Both the position numbers and the translations under genes were made by a program. The notes beneath the pieces were generated by a model that was not told where the DNA came from, ran no database searches, and saw only the letters and a list, made by a program, of their open reading frames with translations. A stretch of DNA of 62,781 nucleotides, filler included. It is 12 parts of 12 records of this genome, joined end to end, with 100 filler letters (N's around TTAATTAATTAA, not from the genome) between each part and the next. Parts side by side here need not be neighbours in the genome. Positions count along the whole stretch, not along the records: positions 7,193 to 10,824 come from SRR7504441_4749; 11 more parts are not named here. One strand, given 5' to 3'. Positions 7,193-57,468 of this stretch are shown piece after piece. Every line of letters begins with the position of its first letter. The stretch's first letter is position 1.

Positions 7193-7232
7193 ATTTAGTA
7201 TTTATTTGAATGTATTAAGTGGCATCAAATGT

Positions 7233-10200
7233 CTAGTCTTCCTCTTCATCGCTCTCCTCCTCGGCCTGCTGGAGCCAAGCCACGAATGGACCCATGGTGA
7301 CCCGAAGCTGAGCCTCCACGCTATTTGCAGAGCACTGTCTTGCGTGCCATGCCAATATGGTATCTTCGTCCACTAGACCATCATCATACAGCACCTGGGC
7401 ACCATACGCTTACGCGGCAGCTTAGCGGCAGCTTGCAAAGAGCACCTTGAGTAGCAACGGAAAACGCTTGATACCTGGCTCGGCGCTTAGCTCTGCGAAT
7501 TCGGCAAGCCCGTCAACCAACTGGTGCTGCGCCGCCTGCTCGAGCTCGCCCAGAACCTGGCTCAGCCCCCCAAGAGCCACAGCATACTGCTCATTATCAC
7601 AACTTGCAAATGATTTGAACAGCTGCTTAGTCACGGTGGGCATGCTTTGCCTCTCGGCGCGCAGCGCTATGAGCGATTGCCACAGCTTGGGTTCCGACTG
7701 AATCTTTTCGATTTGTGTCAACTCAAGTGCATCCCCGCTGGCCTGTCTCTTCTGCAGGTTTTGTATCTGTTTGATCTTCTTGTAGATCTTGGCCTCGTCC
7801 CGATGACGCTGCTGATCCGGCGTGAGTGGTGCCTTTGGCACAGCGTGGTCCGGCTCTTTTACAGGCAGTGGTACTTGAGTGGCTGGCGTTTCAGGCGGAG
7901 GCAGCTCCACCGCCGCCTGCCTGACTGCCTCGCAGCCGCGCTCTACCGAGTGAAACAGCTCGAACCCACCAATCAGCTTGCTCCAAGGTGACACCTGCCC
8001 GCCGGTTCAACTCATTCGGGCAAGCATTACCCCGCCGATACATTCGCGGCTGCCCAGTACGATCAGCTGATGACTGCCCCCCATTCACACCCAAACAAAT
8101 CCGATCAACCCACCGAGCCCGACTGAGCGCCACATTCACGCGGCGGCGATTGGTTACAAACCCGAGAGGTGAACCCTTGCCGCCCTTCTTGGTGCTCACG
8201 CGCACCAGTGAGAGGATCACAAAGTCGCTCTCACGGCCCTGCATCGCATCTACAGAGACACAGGGAGCTCGGCTGTCGACAGGTTGCTGTTCCATCATTG
8301 TCTCGATTGTCGACCTTTGTCCATTGTAAAGCGTGATTACGGTGATCGAACTATCCGGATGCAGCTCATTCAAAATAGCTACCACGGTCACTGCTGCTTG
8401 CGCCTCCGCCATGTTTAGGTAGGAGCTGCCCTGCTTGGACTCTTGGCCAGCAGCATCGATCCACACTAGGGGTAGGCCCTGCGGTCTGGCAGCTACGGTA
8501 CTGGCTGCCGTCTTGAGCTTAGAGTTGTAAAAGGCACGTGAGACAAGTGCACACATCGCTGGATGCATGCGGTACTGTTCCCGAAGCAGGAAGTGCTGGC
8601 AGCACCCTTCAGCTATCAGTCGCTCCATAAGGGAAGTATTATAGCCACTGTTCGCAGCCCCATGCCACCTGCCACCTGCTCAGCTGGATCACTGGTAAAG
8701 CGCACCGAGTGAATGGCTGCAGTTGCAATTGGTCGCCCACGGCAAGAACAGCCTGAGCCCCATGCAGCAGGCAGCCGAGTGCGTCGACCTCAAGCATTGC
8801 AGCCGCCTCGTCCAGTACAACAAACTCGAACAGCGAGCAGCCAGATTCCGACTCCAATTCAGTTGGTTGCTCACCAGCAGCACCTGCCAGCTCGATGCAA
8901 CAGAAGCTGCGGCATGTAGTACCTTCATCGTCTATGGCCCTGCCGACCCGGGTAGCCACATGGACAGCTGCCGCCGTGGTGCAAGCCACCACTCGAGCCC
9001 GCCGCCATATCTTGCTACCTGCACTCCGCCTGGCTGCGAGCCACACACGCTCAGCCGCGTCCTCCTCCTTGTACGCGCGCTGCAGTCTGGACTTTGCCTC
9101 AGCGAGCTCAGCATATGCCTGGCTGCTCTGGCAGTCCGGCGGCTTTGCTAAGTGGGCTTGTCCAGCAGTGATCAGCTCCTTGTATGTTATATCTCCCGAC
9201 GACGCCAACCCAAGCTGCCTCGCCAGTGAGCAACCGAGTAAGCAACGGCTGACCTGTTGCAGCAGCCTGCAGATGCCCGGAGTCTTCGCGGCCTTGCTAT
9301 TTGGCTTATTGGTCTGCAATTTCTCAAGCTGTCGTGAGATGAATTTTCGGTTATCCTCTAAAACAGCATTATTCTTGGCCTGTCCAGCTGCTGCCTCCTG
9401 CTGCTCCGCCATTAGCTTCTTGAGCTTCTTGCTCACCGCTTTATCTAATTCAGCCGGCTCTGGCTCGCGCTCGAGCTTCTTTAGCAGCTTTTTCCGGCAT
9501 TTGGCCGCCACCTCCTCTTGGTCAATCTGTTCCGGCTCGAATACCTGCTTCTGTTGCAGGCTGGTACTTCTGGTCTTCTTGCTCTTCTTGAAAGCTTTCT
9601 CGGCCTCATCTAGCTGGATTTGTGCCTCGTCACGCTCTGCCCCATCGCTCAGCCGCTGGCCAACCGGACGGAACTACCGTGAGTAGCCCGGTCGGCCGCT
9701 GCGCCGAGCTTCACTATCTCGCTGTCTCGCTCAAGCCGGGAGGAGAGGAGATACCGGCTGGAGGCAGGGCCGAGCCTCTCCCGACTGCCCACTGCGAGCA
9801 TCTCGCTGATACCGGCCCGCTCCAGCTTTGCCACCAAGGAGTCGATCGCCAGATTGGTGCTAGTGCAAACCAGCACCCGTGCGTGACTCGGGACCCGCCT
9901 TAGCAGCACTTGGCAAATGAACTGCGACTTGCCGGTACCGGGCGGGCCTTGCACACAGCACACAGGTCCAGCCAGTCCGTCCAGCGCCTGCTGCTGCGAC
10001 TGGTTCAACTGTACAGTTGCCTGGCTCCGTGCATGTGTGAGCCAAGGGTCCGCCTCTGACTGCTGCTTGCCATGCAGTACTGCGCTGGCGATCGGGCGAG
10101 TTAATTTATCCAGTGAGAACAAGGTGTGCGACCTGTACACGGCCGACAGCACCGAGCACAGCGCTATACAGTGGAAGCTCTCTCCTTGGGCCAGTGAGCT

Positions 10201-10779
10201 GGTCGGAGAGTAACGAGCCAAACTGTCCGCAGGCAGGCCACCTGGCGTCAGCCCGAGCGCATGATAGCCGGACGCAATCCCAGGCGCCATCCCGTAAGCC
10301 AGCCAGAGCATCGGGCGCGTGTCCCGCCCACGGCCACGCGTGACCGGCCCACGGGTCCACAGCAGTTGCCACAGCAGTCGCGGCTCCTCGCCGTCCTCGT
10401 CCGAGGAAATCACTGCACGTGGCTTGTTGGAGCGACTATCGGCACCGCCCGGTGGTGTGATGGTCACCAGGCAGCCCAGACCGTCGCTCGTAGGATCGCG
10501 GAAGGTGAGCACCCACTCGTGTGGCCGGTGCGGTGCCTGCTTGAGTGCCTCGTCGGCCTCCGCATGCAGCTCCGCGCTCACCCCTTCCAGCCACCGGCGA
10601 GCGTACGCCCCAGGACTCTGCCCAGCAGCCGACCAGTCCCGCCGCAGCAGCTGGAGGAGAAGCTGAGCGCGGTCCATCGAGTCGGCGAGCTGGCTAACGG
10701 ACTTTGTCGCCGCTGCCCACTGGCGGACTGCTCCCCCGAGAAGCCCGCTGACAGATCCAGTTCGATGTTCTCCACCCAT
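7233..10779 (-). CDS. Upf1/Sen1-like SF1 helicase fused to a PYM/eIF2A-like hairpin and a C-terminal W2 domain; start uncertain (10677 or upstream)
   Basis: Helicase motifs LNQSQQQA, QGPPGTGKS, STNLAID, LDEAA, GDQLQL, EQYRMHP, VDAMQGRE and NVALSRAR. Introns 8074-8113, 7995-8030 and 7395-7445 keep the frame into KVLYDDGLVDEDTILAW...PFVAWLQQAEEESDEEED*. Confidence 0.85.
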
Positions 10780-10824
10780 CCGCGCCTCGCCTTAGAGTAG
10801 ACCCAGCGCTGCTTGTCCAGCGGC

Positions 10825-12994: not shown

Positions 12995-13087
12995 CGCGCG
13001 CTGAGTTCCGTCAGGGGCGCGCCCTGACGTTGCCTCACCCCGACCGCCCGCCGATTCACCCAAAACGGCCGCGCGGCTGCCGCGGCC

Positions 13088-14209
13088 ATGACAGCTGGGG
13101 GGGCGGTGGAGCCGGATCCGGAGGAGGCGGTGCCTGTGCTCCGCCGTGCGGAGGAGCTGCCACCGCTGCCGCGGCCCAAGTGGGAAGTCATTCGGCAGGA
13201 GACCTTCCAAGGCTGCGCGGTTGTACTCGGGATCGTGGCCGCCTGCCTGCTTGGCGTCCACGGGCTGGCGCTCAGGATCCCCGGGATGTCAGACGAGCTC
13301 CGCTGGGGGTTCGCGGTGGCGATTGACCTGGAGGCGGCCATCGCGGTCGCACTGCTGGCCCGGCTGATGCTGGGTGACCCAGGCGTGATCGAACGCACTC
13401 CTGAGAACACGGCCCCGGTGCCGCCGGCGGTTGCTGACCGTCTGGCCGACCAGATCCCGGTGTCCGACTGGGGCTACATGAGCAACATCACCGACGGCGA
13501 CCGGAGCTACTGCGTCCGTTGCATGGTCTGGCGCGGGCCGGTGGAGCAGGGCTCGTCGGCCTGCTGGACCGCGGCCCATCCGTGCGGGGGCACCATGGGC
13601 ATGCACGCGGGCAGGCCGGCTCGGGCGCACCACTGCAGCACCTGCCAGCGGTGCGTGCGCGACTTTGACCACCACTGCGGTGTGCTGGGCCGGTGCATTG
13701 CCGGTCGCGGTCTCAGTGGGAACTTCTGGGTCTTTGTTTCGCTTATCACGATGGCGCACATCGGGTGGATAACTGCGCTCAGTGCGGTGGTGACCGCGTT
13801 CGCGTATCGGTATGGCGCCCTTCTGGGGTTTGGGATCGTAGGTGGAGCTGCAGCTGTGATGGTGCTCTGCAATTGCGTGGTGTTGTGTGCGATGAGGTCG
13901 ATGCACTGGCTCAACGGCCAAAAGCGGCTTCGAATGAGGGAGGCTGCGCGGCTGAGGATGCACGGCGCTGCAACCGATAGGCGGCCGAGCTACATTGAAG
14001 TGACCGAAGGCGAGGTGGAGGCGTTCAATCTGCGAGGGGACGGCGAGGCTCAGGATGATCTGGAGATAGGAGACGGCTCGTCGGATGATGCCGAGGTAGA
14101 GGCAGCGACGGCGCACACAGAGCCCACATGGCCCGGTGCAAGTGAACTCCATGCAAATCCGGAGAGCGAGCCCATGGTCGATTTGGCCATCGCATCGGAT
14201 GCGCTCTGA
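13088..14209 (+). CDS. DHHC protein S-acyltransferase
   Basis: DPG motif and RAHHCSTCQRCVRDFDHHCGVLGRCI, with four hydrophobic segments. Confidence 0.92.
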   Translation: MTAGGAVEPDPEEAVPVLRRAEELPPLPRPKWEVIRQETFQGCAVVLGIVAACLLGVHGLALRIPGMSDELRWGFAVAIDLEAAIAVALLARLMLGDPGVIERTPENTAPVPPAVADRLADQIPVSDWGYMSNITDGDRSYCVRCMVWRGPVEQGSSACWTAAHPCGGTMGMHAGRPARAHHCSTCQRCVRDFDHHCGVLGRCIAGRGLSGNFWVFVSLITMAHIGWITALSAVVTAFAYRYGALLGFGIVGGAAAVMVLCNCVVLCAMRSMHWLNGQKRLRMREAARLRMHGAATDRRPSYIEVTEGEVEAFNLRGDGEAQDDLEIGDGSSDDAEVEAATAHTEPTWPGASELHANPESEPMVDLAIASDAL

Positions 14210-21246: not shown

Positions 21247-21326
21247 GTGCTCGCTCCGAGACCGATTGACCGAGCTGCCTCTCGAATCCGTTACTCCGGC
21301 CGGGCAGTGCACACCAAAAGAGTACA

Positions 21327-23906
21327 ATGCAGCTGCTCGCTGTGCTCGCCCTCGCCGCGCTGGCCGCCGGCCGCAGCAGCATCGCACCCACTGGCCAGTC
21401 GTTTGCGATCGCCAACGACTCGTTTGTGCTGGACGGGCGTCAGATGCAGCTGATGAGCTGCTCCTATCACTACTCCCGGAGCACCGCCGACACCTGGGAC
21501 GATCGGCTCGGGCGGCTGGCGGCCATGGGCTGCAACACGATCCAGACCTATGTCCCATGGAACTGGCACGAGCCTGAGCCCGGCGCCTGGGACTTCCAGA
21601 CCGGCGCCCGCAACATCGGTGGCTTCCTGAGGCTCTGCAAGGCGCACGGGCTGCTGGTTATTGTCCGGGCCGGGCCTTACATGTGCGGCGAGTGGGAGTT
21701 TGGCGGATTGCCGTCCTGGCTCATCCAGCAGGATCCGAGTATGAAAGTGCGCACATGGGACAGCGGCTACATTGAGCGGGTGGACAAGTACTTCGGCCAG
21801 CTCATGCCGCAGCTCACACCGCACCTGTACAACACCAATCCGAGTAACGGCAGCGTGATCATGGTGCAGGTCGAGAATGAGTACGGCTCATACGGCGACG
21901 TCTCGACCAACCCGGCAGATAAAAAGTATCTAGAGCACCTGGTCGAGATCGCCTCATCGCTGCTCGGAAACAGCGCTGTGGGCAGATTCGAGGCGGTACA
22001 GCTCTACACGGACGACGGTGGGAACAGCGGGTTCATGACGCGTGGCTCGCTCAAAGGTCCGAGCGTGTACACTGTCGGGGACGGCGGTCCTGGCCCCGAT
22101 GGAGCTCTCTGTGCGGCAATGGCTGAGTTCAATCCGGCGGGGCTCAATCCGTGCCTCGACGACGAGTACTATGCGGGCTGGATCACGCACTGGGGATCGG
22201 CGGTGGCTAACACCTCGACCAAGACTGTTGTCAAGTACCTGGACGACCTGTTGAGCGAGGGGCACTCGGTCTCCATATACATGGGCCACGGGGGCTCAAA
22301 CTTCGGTCCGTTCTCCGGGGCCAACGGTGGTGGCAAGAGCTACCAGTCCACGATCCAATCGTACGATTACAACTCACCGGTTGCTGAAGGCGGTGAGCAC
22401 GGGTACGGCCCCGATGGCGACAAGTATGAAGGCATTCGAGCCGTTTTCAGCAAGTACACCAAGAGGGGCAGTCTCCCCCAGGAGCCTCCATTGGGCCCGC
22501 GATACGCGTATGCTCCTATCAGGCTCAACCAAGCGGCGCCAATGTTAGACCCGGCCAATCTCAGGCTTCTGGGCGGAACGGCGACTATGGCGGATAGGCC
22601 GACGAATATGGAGGCATACGGGCAGCGATACGGGTTTATTCTGTACACGGCGACTATGCCTCCAATGCCCGCACTGGCGGCCGGCGGAGCTGAACAGCGC
22701 ATGCTTGAGATACTAGACTACCCGAGGGACAGGGCACAGGTGTTCGTTGACGGACACGAAGCGTGCCCGGCTATATTCCGACCAACTGCCGCCCCAGTCA
22801 ACCTAAGCCTTGCGCGGAATCGCCGGTTCAACGGGGGTGAGGACGATACGAAGAGACTTTGGAGGCCCGAGGGCGGCGAGCGGCTGGAGCTTCTGGTCGA
22901 GAATATGGGGCGCATGACCTTTGGCAGCGGACTGTGGGATCCGAAGGGCATTACGGAGGCTGTCCAGGTTGACGGCACTACGAATATCACCGGTACTGAT
23001 GCCTGGATGGTGCACAACCTCGACCTTGCCAACTTTACAAAGGGCGTCGCCAACCTGCCTTTCGGGCCTTTGCCGTCGTCCGCTCATCGGGACAACGGCA
23101 GTGCGGGTGGGCCGTACTTTCTGCGAGGCACGTTGCCAATCGCTGCCGGCCGGGTCGGTGATACGTACCTCCTGCTCACGGGCCCCACGTATCGTCGGGG
23201 GTTTGTATGGATCAACGGCTTTTTTCTGGGCCGTTACTGGCCGGATGAGGGCCCTCAGAAGACCATGTATGTGCCGGCTTCGCTGCTCAAACGAGGCGGC
23301 AATGACGTCGTGCTGCTTGAGCTGCATCCCTCGCAGGCGCTTGCACATGCAAGTACTGGTGGCGTGCCGCTGAGGTTTGTGGACGCCCAGGACTTCACCG
23401 GCCTCCCGATGATCTGCGACCCGGACAGCGCAGTTGTTGCTGGCGAGGCGCTTGCTGTGTACAGTTGCGGGGCGGGTGGGGCCCACCAGAGTTGGAAGCT
23501 TGTCAATAGCACGGCGGTCAGCCCTCCAGGAGGGGCGGGGAGGACAGTGGCGACCACTTCAACCAGCTTTCACTTGCAGCTGAAAGATACGTCCTCTCTT
23601 TGTCTTGCCGCCCAGGGAGAGCCGGGTGGAGCGACTGCTTCGCCTGCTGCTATCGTAGTGCCGTGCGATGGCTCGGCGGCGCAAACCTTTTCTTGGGACG
23701 CGGAGTCGAAGCTTTTGACCTTGAGTAACGGCGAAGCTTTGCAACTCACCGCACCGCATGGTCCGAGTGCAGTTTTTGGTGCTGCTCCTGCGGACCCAAA
23801 GAGCGCCCCGGGTGCGCAGTGGTCGCTACTCGATACGCCGTCCCACTTTTACAACCTACAAGTGGAGGACGGCGGGTTGTGTTTGTCAGCATGCGATAAG
23901 CGATGA
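21327..23906 (+). CDS. GH35 beta-galactosidase with signal peptide and C-terminal ricin-B-like lectin
   Basis: TYVPWNWHE, RAGPYMCGEWEFGGLP, VQVENEYG, EYYAGW, SYDYNSP and LGRYWP; C-terminal QxW repeats; intronless. Confidence 0.95.
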   Translation: MQLLAVLALAALAAGRSSIAPTGQSFAIANDSFVLDGRQMQLMSCSYHYSRSTADTWDDRLGRLAAMGCNTIQTYVPWNWHEPEPGAWDFQTGARNIGGFLRLCKAHGLLVIVRAGPYMCGEWEFGGLPSWLIQQDPSMKVRTWDSGYIERVDKYFGQLMPQLTPHLYNTNPSNGSVIMVQVENEYGSYGDVSTNPADKKYLEHLVEIASSLLGNSAVGRFEAVQLYTDDGGNSGFMTRGSLKGPSVYTVGDGGPGPDGALCAAMAEFNPAGLNPCLDDEYYAGWITHWGSAVANTSTKTVVKYLDDLLSEGHSVSIYMGHGGSNFGPFSGANGGGKSYQSTIQSYDYNSPVAEGGEHGYGPDGDKYEGIRAVFSKYTKRGSLPQEPPLGPRYAYAPIRLNQAAPMLDPANLRLLGGTATMADRPTNMEAYGQRYGFILYTATMPPMPALAAGGAEQRMLEILDYPRDRAQVFVDGHEACPAIFRPTAAPVNLSLARNRRFNGGEDDTKRLWRPEGGERLELLVENMGRMTFGSGLWDPKGITEAVQVDGTTNITGTDAWMVHNLDLANFTKGVANLPFGPLPSSAHRDNGSAGGPYFLRGTLPIAAGRVGDTYLLLTGPTYRRGFVWINGFFLGRYWPDEGPQKTMYVPASLLKRGGNDVVLLELHPSQALAHASTGGVPLRFVDAQDFTGLPMICDPDSAVVAGEALAVYSCGAGGAHQSWKLVNSTAVSPPGGAGRTVATTSTSFHLQLKDTSSLCLAAQGEPGGATASPAAIVVPCDGSAAQTFSWDAESKLLTLSNGEALQLTAPHGPSAVFGAAPADPKSAPGAQWSLLDTPSHFYNLQVEDGGLCLSACDKR

Positions 23907-32299: not shown

Positions 32300-33526
32300 T
32301 TACCACGGATCATCCGATTCCTCGCTATCAACGCCCCCTCGCGCAGCTCGCCGTCGGTTGGCGCTGCAAGTATCCGACACAAACCGCGCAGAAACTTGGC
32401 TCACGCTATGATTCAGCCTGATGTCACACCACAAAAGCGTCTTGTTCCGGCCCATGCCCTTGGCCAGCGCCTTACCGCCGTTCGCCCCGATCTTGCAGTC
32501 GATCATCCTGCGTCCCGACCTTTAGCCGGCACTGGCCGCGCCCGCACCAGATTGACTGCAACGAGGTGGCCTTGGCGAGGGCAGGCCCTATCGTGCACAC
32601 CCCCTGATCTGCCAGCCCGTTCCGGCAGAGCGCCAACATCCGGAGTGACGGGCTCCCCGCAAGCAGCTCGGCAATGGGCTCCGCGGCGGCCCCTGTGATT
32701 GCTGCACATGTGCTGTCAAAGGCGGCCAGTCGACCCGACGCTCACCGTTCTCGCGAAGATCAAGCGCCCGAAGCGTCGGGTGTGCCGCTAGAGCACCACA
32801 CACCGCCGTCGCACCCTGCCACCCAGTCTGAGCCAGCACGCTGCCGGCGAGGCGCACCAGCACAGAGAGGGTGTTCTGCCTTAGATTGAGAGAGACCAGG
32901 TTGGGCAACTGCCTGCCACGACAATAAGCGACCAACCGCACCGCCGGCCGCACCCGGCCTTGAGGTGGGCCGCCAGCGCCTCGCCCCCCGCCCCCGTGAG
33001 CTCGCAGTCCCGCAGCGAGAGGTGGGTTAACGCAAGCGATCCGGCCTCGCTGCAGAACTGGGCCACCCCGGCGTCTCTGAGCATGTTCCACCCGACCTGC
33101 CCCGGCGCTCGGCCAACCGCCAGGCGGCGCGGCCACGTCCAGCCGCTGGAGCTTGGGCAGTCCGCTGCACAGCGTGCCCAGCCCGGCGCCTCGCAGCTCG
33201 TTCTCTGCCAGCACTACCTCTTGCACCCGCTGGTTGCCCTTCACAGCCTGGGCCAGCTCCCCGATCCACGGCCCGTCCTCCAGCCCGTTGCCCTCCAGTT
33301 GCAGGATCACCGTGGACCCCGGACCCGGCCGGCGGCCTGCTGCATCCTTGCAAGCCGCGAGCCGGTCGGACAGCGGCATGGTCCGCTCTCCGCGGAGCAT
33401 GGCCACCGCCACCGTGTGCTGGGCCTCCTCGAGCTCGGCGTACCAAGTCACCTTCTCGAACTGGCCGTCCGGGTGCCACCGGCTCTCCCGCCACTCGGCG
33501 AACGGGACTTCTGCTACCGCCGGCAT
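32300..33526 (-). CDS. RNI-like leucine-rich-repeat protein, multi-exon
   Basis: LQLEGNGL, VVLAENEL, LSLRDCEL, LNLRQNTL, LDLREN and CKIGANGGKALAKG. Confidence 0.8.
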
Positions 33527-33598
33527 CCGAAGACAGACCCCCGGCTACACCGCCCGCGCGGCCGCGCCCGAATATTTTATTCGACGCGATTTGCCCGC

Positions 33599-35443
33599 AT
33601 GGGGCGGCTGAAGAGCACCGCTGTCTTTGGCACGCTGCTGGCGCTGTGCGCGGGGGCAGCTGCAGCTGGTGAATCGCTGGGCCCGGGAACTGGGGCGTGG
33701 CGCTCGGCCGATCCGAGCTCTGTGGGGCTCTCCGCGGCCAAGCTGGAGCGGGCTGCGGCCCAGATCAGGGCTCGGGTGCCGGAGCGGTACTGCCTGCTGG
33801 TGGCCAAGCACGGCCGGCTGGTGCACGAGAGCTACTTTGCTAACAGCAGCCAGACTGTCTACGAGAGCGACAGCGCGGGCAAGACGTTCACGGCGGCGCT
33901 AATCGGGGTGCTGGTGCACAAGGGGCTGGTGGACATTGACAGGCCTATCCGGGAGTACGGGGTGCGCCCGCGCAGCGTGAGCTACCCGTTCAGCTCGGGG
34001 CGGCTGTGGAACAAGACTGGGGGCGATTACTTTGAGCGAGTGACGGCCCGGCACATTTTGAGCCAGAGCAGCGGGTTTGGGCTGGTGGAGCCCGGCAGCT
34101 GGTTTACGTACGACTCGAATGATTACATCCAGCACCTGTCGTACCTAATCTCGGCGGTCACCGGGCAGGATGCGGTCGGTTGGGCACAGGACAACTTTGC
34201 GACTCCGCTCGGGATTCCTAACCTTTATGATTACGACAATGACGGCATCCCAGGGTCAGGCACTGACGCGCCAAAAGGCGACATGAGCGCCGGAGGGGGG
34301 CAAATGGTCACCTGTCGCGATCTGGTCCGCCTAGGTCAGTTGCTGCTCAACCGTGGCACGTGGCTTGATGCTGACGGTGAGCCCTACAGACTGATTCCTG
34401 CCTGGTACGCTGATGCGATGATGAGGCCGTCCTTTAGTGCCACACCCACCTATGGGCTGCTGATGTGGCTCAATAATCCAGTCAATGCGAGCATGCCCAA
34501 GTGCTGTGCGCCACGATGGGGCGGCGAGAGACTGCATTGCAACAGCGACAAGACAAGCTGCACCACATGCTGCACGACCAACTGCGATATCGGACCCGGG
34601 TACCCATGTGACCTCGACATTAAAGCTATGCATGAGAAATGCTCAGCTGCACCCAACCTGACCTCCTGCCTGCGCGAGGGGGCGAATGCTCTCAACAAGC
34701 AGATTGTGGGCGACTCAGGCTTGACTGCTGGTCCCGACGATCTTGCCATTGCCATGGGCAACTTTGCCAAGTACATGCTGGTGGTCCCGTCACTCGGCAT
34801 TACAGTCTCGTCCCTCGGGCACACTTGGGGTGCCAGCCAGCTGTGTGACGACTCCTATGACGATGCCTGGACCCTGGGCTTAATATGGAACTTTCTGGCA
34901 CCAGCCGTCCATTCAGATTCCAATTCGAGCCATCCCGTAGTAACAAGCTCAGGCGCAGCTCAGCCACCACCAGTCCAACCTCAGATGTCAGCACAGACGC
35001 AGGTTACGCGCCGGCAGGTCCCCAGCGCAGAACAGAGCTCGGAGTGGGCTGGCAGCTGCTCATGCCTGTGCCCCCCGGGCCAGGGCTTTGGACGGTGCTT
35101 CAATGTCAAGCAGCGCGACTTGGCTCAGACTCCGACGAGTAATAACTGCAGCCATGTTGAAGGATGGTACACTAGTCCGAACTCGCCGCTCTTTTCTGCT
35201 GGAAACTTTTGCCCGAACCTCGGAGTGGCACAGCAGTGTGACCCCACTAATGCCACCTCGGAGCTATGCAAGTTCAGCTTTGGAGGAATGCACAACTGCA
35301 CAATGACGCAACCTTGCGAGTCTGTGCCATCAAGCACGGGGGCAGCAATCGGGTCCACCGCATGCACGTGTCAGGCTAGGGAATTTGAGCGCTGCCATTG
35401 GTCCTCCGATATGTGCGACTTTTCACCATACTTTCCTCCATAG
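33599..35443 (+). CDS. Secreted serine beta-lactamase-superfamily hydrolase with Cys-rich regions
   Basis: Signal peptide from the ATG at 33599, LLVAKHGRLVHE, SxxK (SAGK), ARHILSQSSG, FTYDSN and RDLVRLGQLLLNRG. Confidence 0.8.
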   Translation: MGRLKSTAVFGTLLALCAGAAAAGESLGPGTGAWRSADPSSVGLSAAKLERAAAQIRARVPERYCLLVAKHGRLVHESYFANSSQTVYESDSAGKTFTAALIGVLVHKGLVDIDRPIREYGVRPRSVSYPFSSGRLWNKTGGDYFERVTARHILSQSSGFGLVEPGSWFTYDSNDYIQHLSYLISAVTGQDAVGWAQDNFATPLGIPNLYDYDNDGIPGSGTDAPKGDMSAGGGQMVTCRDLVRLGQLLLNRGTWLDADGEPYRLIPAWYADAMMRPSFSATPTYGLLMWLNNPVNASMPKCCAPRWGGERLHCNSDKTSCTTCCTTNCDIGPGYPCDLDIKAMHEKCSAAPNLTSCLREGANALNKQIVGDSGLTAGPDDLAIAMGNFAKYMLVVPSLGITVSSLGHTWGASQLCDDSYDDAWTLGLIWNFLAPAVHSDSNSSHPVVTSSGAAQPPPVQPQMSAQTQVTRRQVPSAEQSSEWAGSCSCLCPPGQGFGRCFNVKQRDLAQTPTSNNCSHVEGWYTSPNSPLFSAGNFCPNLGVAQQCDPTNATSELCKFSFGGMHNCTMTQPCESVPSSTGAAIGSTACTCQAREFERCHWSSDMCDFSPYFPP

Positions 35444-35634: not shown

Positions 35635-38600
35635 TTACCTCTCTAATGCAAGGTGGTTTTGCTTAGAATACTCCCAAATCATCAGCGCCGCCGAAACATG
35701 CACATTGAGCGAGCGCAAAACTCCTAATTGCGGGATCTCGACACACCTATCCACCAGTTTGATCAGCTCGATCGGGACTCCACGCTGTTCCTCGCCAAGA
35801 ACCATGATGCACTTGTCCGGGAAAACAAAATCTGTCATCTGAACTGAGTTGGCTGTCTGCTCTAAGGCGACTACGCTCCAGCCAAGCTCCTTCTGAGCAA
35901 TCAGCCAGGCCTCAAGGTGCTGCTCGGGCACCTCCTCGATTGGGATCCACTTCTCTGCAGTGACTGAGCACTGTTGAAACAGCTTATCTTGAGCCACCTT
36001 GCGTGAGTGCAGCACCAGCTTGGCTACATTGAAGATTTCTGACGTACGGGCTATCCCAGCAAGATTGGGAACCTTGTCAATGCACGACGCGACAACTACT
36101 AGCTGCTGCCTGGGCTTGGCTTGTAGCTGTTCCTCGCGTGTGATGAATCCATCTTCCCAAGGGGTGATCTTTGTTTGGAAATCATCTGCATCGACAGTGG
36201 GCATCACTTGAGGTATTGCAGCTTCAACCTCCGCTGCCCGCGAGCCGAGCAGTGAGCTCGCCCCCTTGAGTGCTGCTGTGACGCTCTCGAACAGAACCTT
36301 GGGAATACCCTCCCCAGCAAGCTCTCGGTTGCCTCCAGGAACCGTGTCGAACACTGCATAGAATGAGCACAGCCCTTGTGGTGAGGGTTTGGAAGGCATG
36401 TCCAAGATCTGAGGATGACCAGACAGCTGGTTGCGCAGCTTGACGCAATCCTTGTTAGTTTCAACATATGCCTGCAAGGGCGTAAGCATATGGATCTGAT
36501 TGGGTGTCAGCAGACTAAGCTCTGGCTGTTCAGTGGCACGGACCATGGCAGCGTGGAGTGTCAGTACAGCAAGAGCACGCACCGAATGATTTGCGCACGC
36601 AGTGAAGGCCAGTACCCCGCGGAGCACCGCCACAAAGTCCTCATGCTTCGCTATGTGCTCCAGAACATGCCGTGCCACCATCACCGCTGACACTGCAGTT
36701 TGATTTCTTGCATTGCAGTCGCTGAAGAGCGCCGCCACCCGTTCGACGCAGCTAGTGCTGGGTCCGTCGCCAGCTGGACCGCTCAGCACATGGCGAGCCA
36801 AGAAGGATTCAAGATAGACCCGCACAGATGGCAAGTGGTCGGCTTCGGCCGCACTCCAGGCCTTTTCGACCACACTGGCAGGCAGAGGCTCAGCTTCAGC
36901 CAACACGCAGAGTGTTTGCCAGATTCTGATCTGTCTGCGATGCTGGTCGTGCCCCAGCTTACAGCAGTTTGAGTCAGAGGATATTTCAGAATCTCTTGCT
37001 AGCAGTGCGTGTGCGAGCTTTTGGATCAGATCCCGAGATTCTGAGCATTCTTGTCCCACAGGTTGTCGTTGCAGACCGGACAGCATTCGGTTGACTGTGG
37101 CGCGACACCAAGCGTGCTCCGGCCGGAATGTCGGATTCTCTGGATTGTCATGCTCTCCGGGAGGGCCAACTTCGCACAGCGCAGCAAGTTCTTCGACATA
37201 CAGCAAAGCTGTAGTAGGGTGGCGAGAAAAGGCTGCGCAGCATTGCAGCACAACGGCACACACCAGACTGGCAAACTGATCCCGACGGCTGACCAGTTTG
37301 ATTAGCAGGTCCGCCAGCATTGGATGCAATTCAGCCCGCCGCAACCAGCTTTCACGGAACACTCCAGCGGCGATAGCATTGGCCAGCTTGGGCCCTCGCA
37401 CCTCGCGCTTGCGGCTGGAGTCACGTACGAGGTCCCACACTGCCCAGCTAAGTTGCTCTACACACCACACATCACAGCTGGACGCGCTGATGGCGGATAT
37501 TGCCTCGAAAACAGGTACTGCAACGCTGCCGTGAACCTCTGCTGCAGTTTCGATGGCATCTTTCCAGATGGTCTGATGGTAGGCCGACTGCTCGCCACGA
37601 GCAAGCAAGGCCGCGCACTCATATCTTGCTTGCAAATGCAAAGCCCTCAGTTGGGTGGCAGGCATCAGCACGCTGGCCATTTGACCCAGATTTAGCTGGC
37701 AAGACTCAGCTATTGCCTGCAGTCCAGCCACCCGGTATCGCTCCATAGACGCCTGCAGCTGGAGCTTTTCTGATCCAGTTCCAGGGGTGGCTAGCATCTC
37801 TGTGAGGCCCAGCACCGCCTGCCAAAGTACGAACAGGCCGATTGTTGGCCGCACAGGCCCATGAGAGTCATGAGCTGCCACAGCGGTACTACCGGCGGAC
37901 ACCAGCCGACCAGCAGCCTCCTGGTAGGCCCAACAGGGCGCCACAGCAGCACACTGGCGCAGTGTGTGCAGCTCTACTTTTGTTGATTCAAACAGCTCAA
38001 TCGACTCACAGCTCGCCAGCATCTGGTCGACACTTTTCTCGACCAACCCAGCCAGGTCAGCAGCAACAGACGCCATGCCGTGCACCATCTTCGGCTCCGG
38101 GTGATCTGACTGCTCAGCAAGCTCACCCAGGACTGCCACAGCCCGAGACAACTTGGCTCGGTCCGCATATGCCCGCGTGCCTGCCCCTTCCAACGCCTCA
38201 GCGGCTTGACCGACAGCCTCGGTTTCAACACCTGCCCCCGACCCATCAGGCCGCAGGGCAGCGAGCCCACACCTGCCAGCATCGCGGCACGAGCCACCAG
38301 GCGAGCAGAGCTCGCAGCTGGCGCTCCCTGAATGAAGTCCTTGACCAGTTGCTGGGCTCGTTCAGCCTCCGCCCCGTGCCACTGCGCTAGAGCGGCTTGC
38401 GCAGCTGGGGAGCGCCACACATCCAGTGGTACGAGCTCGATTAATTTTAAACCAGCCTGGAGCTGATCAGGCTGCGAGCCGAGCATGCAGAGCAGCGCTA
38501 TGTAGCAGTCAGGGCGCAGTGTCGGGGCGCTCTCGGCTATATGCACCCTGATGATCTTACTCAGCGCCTGAATCGCGGCGTCTGGCAAGTGACAGAACCC

Positions 38601-53010: not shown

Positions 53011-56000
53011 TTAGACTTCTTCCTCTAGCAGGACAATCCCGACATCAGCAGTTTCAGAAGACTCCACTTCCTCATCAGCAGCTGCAGCCGCATCAACCTC
53101 CTCGCTAACCTCAACAGCCGCTGCAGCTATCTCAACCTCCTCGCTGCACTCCTCAGCCGCCACCGCTTCGACAGGATTGCTGCCCTCAGCAGCTGATCCC
53201 ACTTCCTCTATTGGAATTGCATCGCTGCCTTCAAATGCTGCCCAGTCTGTGTCCGCATCCCAATTTGTTTGGTTCCCGACTCGATAGATCTCGTCCAGCT
53301 TCTTATTGAAGGCCTCTGGGTCATCTTGGCTCTGCAATTCTTTATACACGAGATACAAGTGCAACGCTGCCTTGGAATCTTCGATACTGTCGTGCGTGTC
53401 CACCTGCAAGCAACCCCAGCACCCTCAGCACACAATTTATACTAGCGACGCTTACTTGGAAATCTTTGAACTGTTCGCCCCTCAGCAAGTATGAGATCAT
53501 GAACCGGAGCCCGATCCGGCGCTGGCCGCGCTTCCAGAATAGGTCGAGTGTGTCGATCACTTGGCTTGGTGGCACTAGGATGTTGATGATCCGGAAATCA
53601 TTCTTCAGCCCGTGCCCAATGAAGATCACGCCCTTGCTCACCATGTACGCCAGCTTCTTGTAAACCGACTTGAGAGGCAGCAAGTGGTGCCGCGACAGCC
53701 CAGGGTCAAGATCACCAGGCTTCAAGCCAGAGAAACGCGTCAGATAATCTTCTACATGCTCTCGCGTAGCGATGTAGTCATCGATCAACGGTACCCCAAG
53801 CATCGGGCCCTCAGCCCGCACCACCGAGACCCGCCCGAGTGCATACGAAGCTTGGCGGCTCACTTGCTGCGACCCGTCGGTCCGGATCTCTACCTCGGCG
53901 CTCTTGATTTGGACAAACTCTGCATCCAACGCCACCAGCGAGCCCGCCTCAAGGACTTCCCCACTCTGAAGAGGAACAAACCGCACAGGGAGTGGGTTGG
54001 CATTGGCGATGCTTCGTGATACACCAGCTGCAAGGATATTCTTCAGTTGTGGCTGTGTGGGCACTGTATCTGTGTTGGCTATCTCAGGCCTCGCGTACAC
54101 CAGGATGCAGGGAGTTTTCCAACTGGCGGTGAAGTCGAGCGCTTCCTGCTCTGAAGTCACAGTCACCCGGAAGTCGTTGAACACATACCATTGCACTGAG
54201 CTCTCCGAGCTAGCCTCTCCAGGCGCTGCCTGCTGTTCCAGATACCCTGGGGAAACACGAACAATCGCCACAAAATGGTCCTTCCGAGCGCCCTTCTTCC
54301 GCTGATCAGTGATGCGTGCAATCACAGCCGTCAGCACATACCGTTCGTGCTCCTCCGGGTTTTCGGGATCTTCTGAGACTTTGACCGTCTGCTCGTCTTT
54401 GTCCACTTGCAGCGAGAACTCCCTCCGAAGCCAGGTGGGCGACGACCGCCACATCTGGAGCTTGGCGTCCTGATCAGACCCGGACAGGTCGCACTTGAAC
54501 ACCAGCGCCGGTGGGATGAGCGTGAGCACAGAGGACGAATGGAACAGGTTGGACCGCTTGCACGCGGAGCACTTCATCCGGAATTTCCGGGCCTTGCACA
54601 GCGTCTGGGTCATGATCTCACAGAATGAGCTGTCCGCAGTGGCGTCCTCATACTTCATGCAAAATGAAGTCTCGTTCGAAGCCTGCTCCTTGGTGGACAG
54701 GCAGCCCTCGCACCGCATGTAAGATACCATCTTGGAGGTGAAAAGGTCGGACACAGTTGACTTGGCCCCGGTCTTCTCGTGACTGTCCAGGCTTTCTTTC
54801 TGCAGCTGTGAGAGGAAGAAGTCACAGAATCGTTCTACACGCTGGAAGTAGGGCACATTGGTCGAGACCTTCTGCCCACTGACCGTATCAAGCAGGCACA
54901 ATTGCTCGGCTGTGGGGTTGTGCCGAAGAGCACGCAGGAAGTTGCTAGCGTGGCAGGTCAGCCCTTTTGATGTGTCAAGCATCCTGAACAAGAACCCCAG
55001 CTCTGAGGTGAGCGAATGCTGCTTGTCGTCATCATGCGCCATAATGGACAGCCGCACAGGCGCCAGGAAGTACAGTGTCTGGATCCACGGATTGGCATAG
55101 TCGTTCGGGAGCCCGTTCTCGAGCCCACCAAAGCATGTGCTGTTGTAAGCCTGGAAGTCAAACTCGCCCGCATAGCCCTTGGCCCCGGGCGCCATCTTGG
55201 GCAGCTTGACTTGCACCCGCCTGTACAATGAATCGACCGGGTTTTTATCGTCCTGAGGCGACATCTCCGGCATCCGCGCACCCTTGCCCTTGCGGTGCAT
55301 CGGGCTGTCAGCTTTCATCGGTGTTCTGAGTACCTTGGCCATGGTTTGAGTATTCGGCTTGAGTTTGATAAAGTTGCTCATGTGCCATACCGCGCCCCTG
55401 TTCTGCATGGCGTGTTTCCACTCGGGCCGCACCCTGAACGGGCCATGCCTGAAGAACTTTCGGGCCAGCTTGGACGAGCCCACCCAGGAGGACGCAAGCT
55501 TATCCGGCCCAGCCATTGAAGGCAGCACCGTCCCGGCGGCGGCCAGCGGCGAATCCTCTCCGAATCGAAACCCTGGCGGCTCTGGGTACCTGGGCACTCT
55601 GTGGAACTGGGTTGGGCTGCGATGGACGGTGTACTCGGGCTTATCGGCCCACAAGTGCACGCAGCTGGCAGTATCCCCAAAGCAGATGACCTCTCCCGAG
55701 GGCGAGACCTGGAGGGAGGTGAGCAGCTCGCCACAGGTGTCCACTTGGAACCAGGCGGCCGACGAGAAGTCGCCGAGCACTTCCATAATTGAGAACTGCC
55801 CGTTGGCGGCTGCGACCACCAGAGAGCCGGTGTATGTCGGGTGGAACTGGACCAGCTGGGGCCCGGCCACGAACGGCACCTTGGCCACCGGGGCCATGCT
55901 CCGCCGCAAGTCAAAGATGTTGACCATCGTGTCCGGGTTGTATCGGCCATGCCGGAGCGACGCGCCGCAGGTGGCAACAAGCCCATCCTTGCAGTCTAGA

Positions 56001-57400
56001 GAGGTCACCCCGCCGGTGTGGGTCGCCTGGACGGTGGTCTGCACCGCGAGCGAGCGGGTGTCCCTGATGCACACTTGGCCCGTATCACTCCCGCACACGA
56101 GCGCCCGGCCCTCCATGCTCAGGCAGCTCACCCCGTTCTCGCACTCCATGGACGAAACTGGCGAGCCGCGCCGAATGTCGAAGTTCACAATGCTGCTCTG
56201 CTGCCCGAGCGCCAGATGGCTCGCCCCGTGGCCCGAGTGCGGATTGTTGAGCACAGTCGCGCACCGGACGTGGTTTATGCACTCGTGCGCCACAGCACTC
56301 TGGTAGAGCCCATTTCTGGCCATCACATGCAGTCCAGTGGGGCACACCAGCACCACCTTGTCGGTCTGGTGGACCACTTGCACGATCGCCCCGGGCGGCT
56401 CGCCATGCTCGTCGTAAGGCAGCCCGCGGGATACGTACCGATCCATGTCATCGGCAGTGAAGCATGTTGCGCGCGCCTGGCCTGTGCCGGCCCAGACCAT
56501 TTCCGTGCTCAGGTCGAAACTGAGTGCCGAGACTGGGTCGTTACGCGGCTGGTCCTCGCGCTTCCAGCACGACTGACTGTGCATCCCGGACCAGCCTTGC
56601 ATCCCCATCTCTTGGTAGCCCTCCTGCCCGTACGCTTGCTGGTCGTAGTAAGCCTCCCCAGCCATCGTCTCTTCACCCTGATAGTGGCCCGCCCCATCAG
56701 CCTGGCCATCATAGTACCCGCCCTCCTCGTACTCCTCTTGAAATCCGGCCTCCGGCACAAACTCTTCAGCGTCCTGCCCGTCCGGTAGTGTCGCGTCCTG
56801 CCCGTCGCCGCCATGAGGCACAAAAACTGCCGCGTCCGCGTTGGGCAGAGCGGACATCTCCACGTGCTCCACCAGCTCCACGGCTTGCGGCACGAACGCC
56901 GGCGCCCCGGCGTCGGGCAGCCCGGCGGACTCTGCGGGCTGCTCGGGCGGCGCGGTCGCCCCCTGAGGGACGAACGCCGGCGCTGCCGCGTTCGGTAGAC
57001 CGCCGGGCTCGGCCTGGACTGCGCTCTGCGGGACAAACGCCGGCGCCGCCGCGTTGGGCAGCGCGCTCGTCTCGGCCGCTACCGGGCCGCCTGCGGTCTG
57101 CGGCACGAAAACCGGGGCAGAGGCGTTGGGCAGGGCGGACATCTCGACGTGCTCGACCAGATCGCCGGGTTGGGCCTGCGGGACAAACGCCGGCGCCCCG
57201 GCGTTGGGCAGGGCGGACATTTCCACGTGCTCGACCAGCTCGACGGCCTGCGGCACGAACGGCGGCGCCCCGGCGTCGGGCAGCCCCGCCGGGACGAAGC
57301 TGGGCGCCGCAGCATTGGGGAGGCTACCGCCCTCCGGCACACTCGCCTGGGCGGCTTGCGGCACAAACGCCGGGGCCGCCGCGTTGGGTGGCGTTGACAT
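53011..57400 (-). CDS. PAN2: PAN2 deadenylase catalytic subunit
   Basis: WD40 region, pseudo-UCH (FDFQAYNSTCFGGLEN; WYVFNDF; WKTPCILVY) and DEDDh nuclease (ALDAEFV, DYLTRFSG, GHGLKNDF, HDSIED after intron 53404-53455). Confidence 0.95.
56750..57400 (-). repeat. Coding repeat array: ten PAM2-like motifs in the PAN2 N-terminus
   Basis: (L)P[ND]AxAPxFVP nine times plus LPDGQDAEEFVP; linker LVEHVEMSA three times. Confidence 0.85.
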
Positions 57401-57468
57401 GGCTCCTTGCACTCCTTGTGGTCAGCCCGACATCCCTCGGGCCTCGGCTCTCAAAAATTTCCGTTAAA

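Follow-up and report, generated by a model that had tools for sequence, protein, structure and literature searches.

The window analysed here, 62,781 nucleotides long with its spacers, consists of 12 contigs of 3.3-10.8 kb with GC contents of 0.51-0.64, joined end to end with spacers (N...TTAATTAATTAA...N), and therefore neighbours along it need not be neighbours in the genome. One contig, at positions 7193..10824 (3632 nt, GC 0.593, bordered by spacers at both ends), is filled almost entirely by a single minus-strand gene, leaving 45 nt 5' of the ATG and 40 nt 3' of the stop codon. Six exons separated by five GT..AG introns, all given here in coordinates of the window, yield a coding sequence of 3342 nt with a single terminal stop and a protein of 1113 residues. 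In this protein, a Upf1-like helicase of superfamily 1B (SF1B) is followed by a helical hairpin of the eIF2A/PYM type and by a C-terminal W2 domain, the combination announced in the original prediction, and the three parts almost certainly belong to one polypeptide.

Exon 1 (9678..10779) begins with the ATG at 10779, which is preceded by an in-frame stop at 10794-10792, and encodes residues 1-367 plus one base, comprising an N-terminal helix and beta-barrel region and motifs I and Ia. The insert of the first RecA domain (RecA1) and motifs II and III are located in exon 2 (8706..9636; residues 368-678), the second RecA domain with motifs IV, V and the start of VI in exon 3 (8114..8668). Exon 4 (8031..8073), a micro-exon of 43 nt, supplies the end of motif VI and the next strand and aligns residue for residue with the orthologues. 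All seven motifs (I, Ia, II, III, IV, V and VI) were thereby located in order, in agreement with the complete SF1B set that had been claimed for the locus. Both helicase profiles exceed the Pfam cut-off of 27 bits that applies to each of them: AAA_12 matches exon 3 with 142.7 bits (1.3e-41), and AAA_11 is split between exon 1 (residues 257-352, profile 1-113, 5.7e-13, 49.7 bits) and exon 2 (profile 212-253, 1.8e-6, 28.4 bits). The two parts of the AAA_11 match are separated by 282 residues (residues 353-634; with intron 1, positions 8837-9723), which form the long, helical, Lys-rich RecA1 insert noticed beforehand and are located where, we presume, Upf1-like helicases have their 1C subdomain. 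In its Lys/Glu-rich part (9329..9613; residues 376-470) the Lys content reaches 19%, with runs of K, compared to 4.9% in the whole protein, and a shorter Lys-rich stretch occurs at the same place in the orthologues, including those that lack W2.

The nearest solved helicases in a PDB search were UPF1 (1.3e-20 for exon 3), followed by yeast Nam7, IGHMBP2, Sen1/SETX, ZNFX1 and Aquarius. For the N-terminal region (10015..10779; approximately residues 1-255), an AF2 model based on a 12-row alignment of the family showed a long helix, six beta strands and another helix, with a mean pLDDT of 59. A Foldseek search with the model of exon 1 returned Upf1 as best match (1.2e-6), besides IGHMBP2, SETX, ZNFX1 and Sen1, over 310-367 columns at low TM scores of 0.25-0.34, and an Atlas search, to be taken as a lead only, connected the N-terminal region to 1B-domain clusters. 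The model gives moderate support to the view that this region represents the usual stalk and 1B barrel of Upf1-like helicases and no new domain. The Cys/His-rich zinc domain with which UPF1 binds UPF2 (PF09416) had no Pfam match in exon 1 at E<=0.1.

Exon 5 (7446..7994) is one open frame of 183 codons that starts in the tail of the helicase, continues with a Pro-rich linker and the hairpin and ends within W2, of which it encodes the N-terminal half. Exon 6 (7233..7394) adds 53 residues with the C-terminal half of W2 and ends with the stop codon at 7233-7235. This last exon alone matches the W2 profile (PF02020) with 54.2 bits (1.5e-14; profile 29-79 of 79), well above the cut-off of 30 bits, and the acidic/aromatic boxes expected from the original prediction were located at residues 1062-1076 and 1097-1108, each with a conserved Trp and together followed by an acidic, Ser-containing tail. 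The C-terminal domains of eIF5 are the nearest solved W2 sequences in the PDB search (5e-6), followed by eIF2B-epsilon and eIF4G. The N-terminal GAP domain of eIF5 (eIF-5_eIF-2B), the catalytic parts of eIF2B-epsilon and MIF4G/MA3 had no Pfam match in any exon.

The hairpin (7683..7796; residues 944-981, approximately 38 residues) lies at the stretch for which similarity to PYM and eIF2A had been proposed, and this similarity was recovered in weak form. The best PDB match of exon 5 was the C-terminus of human eIF2A (8dys_A, residues 510-597) with a weak E value of 0.0097. The hairpin lies at the centre of this alignment, and its basic, Gln/Leu and Gly positions form a shared pattern. A HMMER search of exon 5 against 1.84 billion representatives gave seven matches at E<=1e-3, none of them below 1e-10 and none of them a fused orthologue. 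Five of these (P0079-P0082 and P0084; 3.6e-5 to 6.2e-4) correspond to the hairpin stretch in small proteins, one of which, P0079, has the hairpin twice and in addition matches Mago-bind weakly and is therefore PYM-like. The other two (P0078 and P0083) were set aside as repeat or coiled-coil proteins that match other parts of the exon. Fold prediction for exon 5 indicated a helix-turn-helix at the hairpin with low confidence (pLDDT 45). Exon 5 had no Pfam match, and neither Mago-bind nor the eIF2A beta-propeller matched any exon. A word-index comparison of exon 5 with longer proteins produced 2216 candidates, none at E<=0.01; 597 pattern matches in JGI metagenome contigs included none that could be confirmed, and an Atlas search (best score 0.78) gave no lead. 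The motif is real and common to eIF2A and PYM, with a function that is not firmly established.

The conclusion that helicase, hairpin and W2 are parts of one gene is based on the single open frame of exon 5, on splice joints that fit the orthologues, on splicing of intron 2 in RNA and on the occurrence of the same layout elsewhere. The frame of exon 5 contains no ATG before the hairpin and starts with the conserved tail of the helicase itself, in which the VLG of motif VI is followed, 14 residues on, by a Trp. Retention of intron 4 (7995..8030; 36 nt) would bring the frame of the helicase to a stop within 7 codons, and with intron 4 removed the distance from motif VI to the conserved Trp equals that of the orthologues. 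Intron 5 (7395..7445; 51 nt) is in frame but contains two TAA codons, and the resulting joint of exons 5 and 6 reproduces the sequence of the environmental relative P0069 across the middle of W2. Introns 3 (8074..8113; 40 nt) and 1 (9637..9677; 41 nt) likewise give joints that match the orthologues, so that all five joints are accommodated in a full-length collinear alignment. The removal of intron 2 (8669..8705; 37 nt) restores the orthologues' motif III spacing; an alternative acceptor 21 nt past 8669 was rejected because position 8669 leaves 14 residues after motif III, as is customary, and leads to an alignment with the orthologues that is nearly residue for residue. Introns 3 to 5 had been listed in the original prediction and were found to have GT..AG ends and to restore the frame, with introns 1 and 2 as further introns upstream.

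Among 20 runs that contain 5-11% of the words, four (X1, X2, X11 and X18) were aligned with the window, and the shares in the others carry no weight as evidence of habitat. A 151-nt contig of the oligo-dT run X11, a poly(A) metatranscriptome, skips exactly the 37 nt of intron 2 with 0 mismatches, and a contig of metatranscriptome run X18 covers positions 8262-8490 inside exon 3; transcription and splicing of the gene are thereby shown. Introns 1, 3, 4 and 5, among them the three for which a transcript check had been suggested, are not spanned by any RNA contig of the four runs, which says nothing either way about these introns. With one of five introns seen in RNA and the three joints from helicase to W2 placed by homology alone, it might be argued that two adjacent genes, for a helicase and for a small W2 protein, were joined by predicted splicing or that the contig is chimeric near 7900-8100, in particular as no RNA contig bridges introns 3, 4 or 5 and the assembly is fragmented, with only a short contig at this locus. 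Such an artefact is nevertheless very improbable: exon 5 holds the conserved helicase tail and the start of W2 in one frame, no ATG precedes the hairpin in this exon, and helicase and W2 are united in one protein in Prymnesium parvum (KAL1507225.1), in an MMETSP transcript and in a second cluster, of environmental origin. The concern about misassembly or separate genes, raised together with the fusion, is thus largely refuted.

These relatives emerged from a search with exon 1, which matched members of the family at 1e-25 to 1e-37 and yielded 17 proteins, two of them with PF02020 together with PF13086/PF13087. A Pfam rescan found W2 in two of nine family members, P0064 (1241 aa) and P0069 (915 aa), 48.1 bits. 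The cluster of P0064 includes KAL1507225.1, deposited at NCBI as 'hypothetical protein AB1Y20_008074' and in UniRef as A0AB34ITY6_PRYPA, 'W2 domain-containing protein'; the MMETSP transcript belongs to the same 90% cluster. Members of the environmental P0069 cluster come from JGI, ENA and Logan. AAA_12 and W2 were present together in all five scanned members of the two clusters. A search with exon 3 returned 63 matches, none of which is a W2-bearing helicase, and in a search of metagenome contigs with generic patterns from the family alignment, none of 80 loci had the N-terminal region, W2, hairpin or tail (tblastn, 1e-3).

Automatically named entries with this layout are thus already available in public protein databases, and the uniqueness implied by the original prediction was wrong. 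The other part of that claim holds, as UPF1, SETX, IGHMBP2 and ZNFX1 do not have this layout. A full-text literature search found no paper on a helicase with a W2 domain. What is new is one more member of this uncharacterised family, which branches deeply and has an added hairpin. The P. parvum protein belongs to the same clade and has its parts in the order of the 1113-aa protein, with N-terminal region, split AAA_11 with Lys-rich insert, AAA_12, long linker and C-terminal W2, and the cluster representative P0064 has 49% identity over 424 core columns. In contrast to the 1113-aa protein, KAL1507225.1 has 1241 residues, a long acidic linker and, by eye, no evident hairpin. The hairpin was not seen by eye in either of the other two W2-bearing lineages, and neither of them is among the HMMER matches of exon 5.

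The SF1B phylogeny proposed as a check was calculated with FastTree from 71 helicase cores cut by hidden Markov model envelopes. Its input of 75 rows comprised the spliced model and the 74 proteins of at least 500 aa among P0001-P0077, from which P0026, P0063, P0075 and P0077 were dropped because of poor envelopes; the support values are local only, and a long-branch warning applies elsewhere in the tree, for which reason conclusions are drawn from the branch of the family only. The 1113-aa protein falls into a branch of 12 rows with support 99, together with P0001, P0002, P0005-P0007 and P0064-P0069, of which P0006 is from Emiliania huxleyi. UPF1-, IGHMBP2-, SEN1- and DNA2-type rows fall outside this branch, and the rows bearing PF09416 (P0008 and P0022) are outside the 31-row branch that contains the family. 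One chytrid and one oomycete protein, both uncharacterised, are the nearest outgroups. The N-terminal region, the Lys-rich insert and the core are common to the clade and align collinearly. The helicase can therefore be assigned to a separate clade of SF1B proteins that is uncharacterised and has its centre in the haptophytes.

Compared to UPF1/Nam7, the closest solved core, the 1113-aa protein has the same SF1B motifs, an accessory insert in RecA1 and an N-terminus whose model matches Upf1 best, though at low TM scores, but UPF1 lacks W2 and hairpin, and the new protein lacks a PF09416 match and branches separately. IGHMBP2 and DHX29 are helicases that associate with ribosomes or translation factors, and DHX29 does so with the 40S subunit during scanning. 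IGHMBP2, which relies on R3H and zinc-finger domains, has no W2 and is placed elsewhere in the tree, and DHX29 is a DExH protein of superfamily 2 (SF2) without W2.

The three W2-bearing rows are scattered within the clade, so that at least two changes are needed on the tree. W2 of the 1113-aa protein and W2 of P0069 match eIF5 best, with 29.8 and 28 bits, whereas for the P. parvum W2 the best match is eIF2B-epsilon with 24.5 bits, followed by 15.8 bits for eIF5. Among themselves, the W2 halves of the helicases match weakly, with 17-19 and 13 bits (13 bits between the 1113-aa protein and P. parvum), which is below their scores with solved eIF5 or eIF2B-epsilon. With such weak mutual matches and at least two changes on the tree, a single origin of W2 in this family is not established, and neither are several gains. 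The distribution could stem from capture on several occasions or from an early gain with subsequent losses.

Instead of W2, the W2-less members (P0002-P0007 and P0065-P0068) carry a conserved acidic C-terminal tail around a single Trp (..QRDS.V.DDWDASSDEDE..), which was present in 10 of 13 C-termini; P0001 has a variant of it farther upstream. The N-terminal acidic motif of eIF3j/Hcr1 places a Trp in a pocket of the RNA recognition motif of eIF3b (PMC2824034). Of two acidic Trp tails tested, one was matched by PF08597 (eIF3_subunit), at an E value of 0.094 and 13 bits. The resemblance of the tail to the eIF3j motif may be taken as a second, weak pointer to the initiation machinery.

Binding to the Lys-rich K-boxes of eIF2-beta via acidic boxes is described for the W2 domains of eIF5, eIF2B-epsilon and 5MP (PMC12439599). 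The W2 described here resembles those of eIF5, eIF2B-epsilon and 5MP (BZW) in a profile score above the cut-off, in both Trp residues, both boxes and the acidic, Ser-containing tail; it differs from them in that it is attached to an ATP-driven motor and in that its N-terminal half is unrecognisable by sequence. With regard to the hairpin, the C-terminus of PYM is called eIF2A-like in PMC4072592, which reports its association with the 40S subunit and 48S components in HeLa cells. Compared to PYM and eIF2A, the hairpin is internal in the 1113-aa protein and followed by W2, no Mago-binding N-terminus or beta-propeller was matched, and the similarity is weak.

From this domain logic, it may be proposed that the C-terminal module tethers the SF1B motor to eIF2 or to 43S/48S pre-initiation complexes, a proposal to which we give roughly even chances. 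Hairpin and W2 would act as an adaptor module, in which W2 would hold the Lys-rich K-boxes of eIF2-beta (or perhaps eIF3c or eIF1), like the W2 domains of eIF5, eIF2B-epsilon and 5MP, and the hairpin would add a contact to the 40S subunit. SF1B helicases translocate 5'-to-3', and the module would in this way place a 5'-to-3' RNA translocase on 43S/48S complexes. Moving in the scanning direction, the motor might unwind or strip mRNA leaders, removing structure or proteins, or might dismantle stalled complexes. Docking on pre-initiation complexes and a role in surveillance or against viruses, as put forward in the original prediction, are thus to be read as inferences, and none of the features of the 1113-aa protein pointed to an antiviral role.

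Several observations weigh against this tethering proposal. The N-terminal half of W2 (exon 5 residues 105-183) had no PDB match and no Pfam match even at E<=10, and a single-sequence fold of exon 5 predicted it to be helical at a pLDDT of 45, which is usable for secondary structure only; a complete W2 fold of the HEAT type (approximately 150 residues) is therefore not established in the 1113-aa protein. The hairpin similarity is short as well as weak, and its role in 40S binding is disputed, since PYM from Drosophila did not show such an association (PMC4072592). Nine of the 12 rows of the clade have no W2, indicating that the core job of the helicase does not need this domain. Finally, SF1B helicases act on DNA as well as on RNA, and both substrate and polarity are assumed from the family.

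The last point bears on the question whether the helicase acts outside translation, on DNA or nuclear RNA, with W2 and hairpin re-used for another basic partner. DNA2, Sen1/SETX and IGHMBP2 are SF1B relatives with functions on DNA or nuclear RNA, the two nearest outgroup proteins, of one chytrid and one oomycete, are uncharacterised, and a W2-like domain occurs in the nuclear cap-binding protein NCBP1 (PMC9177959). However, W2 itself is listed in the same source only for eIF4G, DAP5, eIF5, eIF2B-epsilon and BZW, and all well-studied W2 domains are found in initiation factors or their regulators (PMC9177959). The hairpin, in addition, is common to eIF2A and PYM, and the tail of the W2-less orthologues is faintly similar to the acidic motif of eIF3j. 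With W2, hairpin and eIF3j-like tail as three separate pointers to initiation, we regard a function outside translation as doubtful.

A role in initiation might also be fulfilled by W2 without the motor. For the K-boxes of eIF2-beta, the W2 protein 5MP is a competitor of eIF5 and eIF2B (PMC12439599, PMC3201852). W2 of the 1113-aa protein is similar to that of eIF5 and is not accompanied by a match to the eIF5 N-terminal domain, so it may compete for eIF2 in the manner of 5MP/BZW and thereby tune start-codon choice or the supply of ternary complex, with the helicase serving another purpose or merely localising W2. A motor of 110 kDa with intact catalytic motifs would, however, be a costly carrier for a decoy, and since the layout recurs within a single helicase family, in three or more of its deep branches, motor and W2 are likely to act in concert. 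We therefore consider such mimicry of eIF5 rather unlikely.

The partner of W2 might, on the other hand, be located in the same protein. The Lys-rich RecA1 insert is similar to a K-box in its composition and K runs, a Lys-rich stretch is kept by the orthologues, and acidic boxes of W2 domains bind K-boxes elsewhere (PMC12439599). By binding the insert, W2 could keep the motor switched off until a Lys-rich competitor, eIF2-beta or another protein, displaces it. The restraint of the UPF1 core by flanking domains, which renders UPF1 autoinhibited, offers an analogy. As the W2-less orthologues also keep the Lys-rich stretch, it must have a role that is independent of W2, and we see a small chance for self-regulation of this kind, which would moreover be compatible with docking to eIF2.

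To our knowledge, the helicases known on initiation complexes are SF2 proteins. The presence of W2 on a Upf1-like motor suggests a direct link of eIF2 or the 43S complex to a translocase that moves in the scanning direction. If W2 instead restrains the motor or binds another partner, the known roles of W2 would still be widened. As W2 recurs in several deep branches and other members have an acidic Trp tail in the corresponding position, it looks as if selection had repeatedly favoured a connection of the motor to the initiation machinery. Extended to the family, this would mean that in haptophyte-related protists a processive 5'-to-3' SF1B motor regularly rides the scanning pre-initiation complex and that its members are recruited by different initiation-factor adaptors: by eIF5- or eIF2B-epsilon-like W2 domains, possibly acquired more than once, here also by the hairpin, and in W2-less members by the eIF3j-like tail. 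Such motors would constitute a novel class of helicases for scanning or for the surveillance of initiation, distinct from the DEAD/DExH proteins that are known in this function. We consider this generalisation improbable at present. P. parvum, which can be cultured and has the same layout, and E. huxleyi, which offers a W2-less relative, are suitable organisms in this respect.

Ordinary eukaryotic proteins are encoded on other contigs of the window, among them PAN2, ubiquitin hydrolases, a DHHC palmitoyltransferase and a beta-galactosidase of family 35, and the source is therefore a fragmented eukaryotic assembly. The host of the helicase-W2 gene is a marine eukaryote (protist). All five introns of the gene are uniformly tiny (36-51 nt), start with GT and end with GCAG or CCAG, and an element similar to CTGAG, CTAAG or TTGAA is located 10-25 nt before their 3' ends. 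Such uniformly tiny introns in a marine eukaryote with 59% GC may be a clue to its lineage. In run X2, a contig matches the 5' end of the gene (10740-10822) with 7 differences and is unlike the contig analysed here on both sides of the match, indicating that a related strain or a paralogue with other flanks is present in that sample.

Long open reading frames on other contigs (21270-23903 and 13028-14206 on the plus strand, 35638-38361 on the minus strand and 32885-35440 on the plus strand) carry ordinary eukaryotic or metabolic domains, namely those of a GH35 beta-galactosidase and a DHHC palmitoyltransferase, of a SpoU methylase that closes a frame of 908 codons and of a protein with a beta-lactamase fold in an 852-codon frame. 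The PAN2-type deadenylase is encoded by a frame of 1359 codons on the minus strand (53345-57421) with matches to PAN2_N (1.9e-30), UCH_1 (3.9e-65) and RNase_T (2.4e-10), and its N-terminus contains a Pro/Ala-rich repeat of unusual length.

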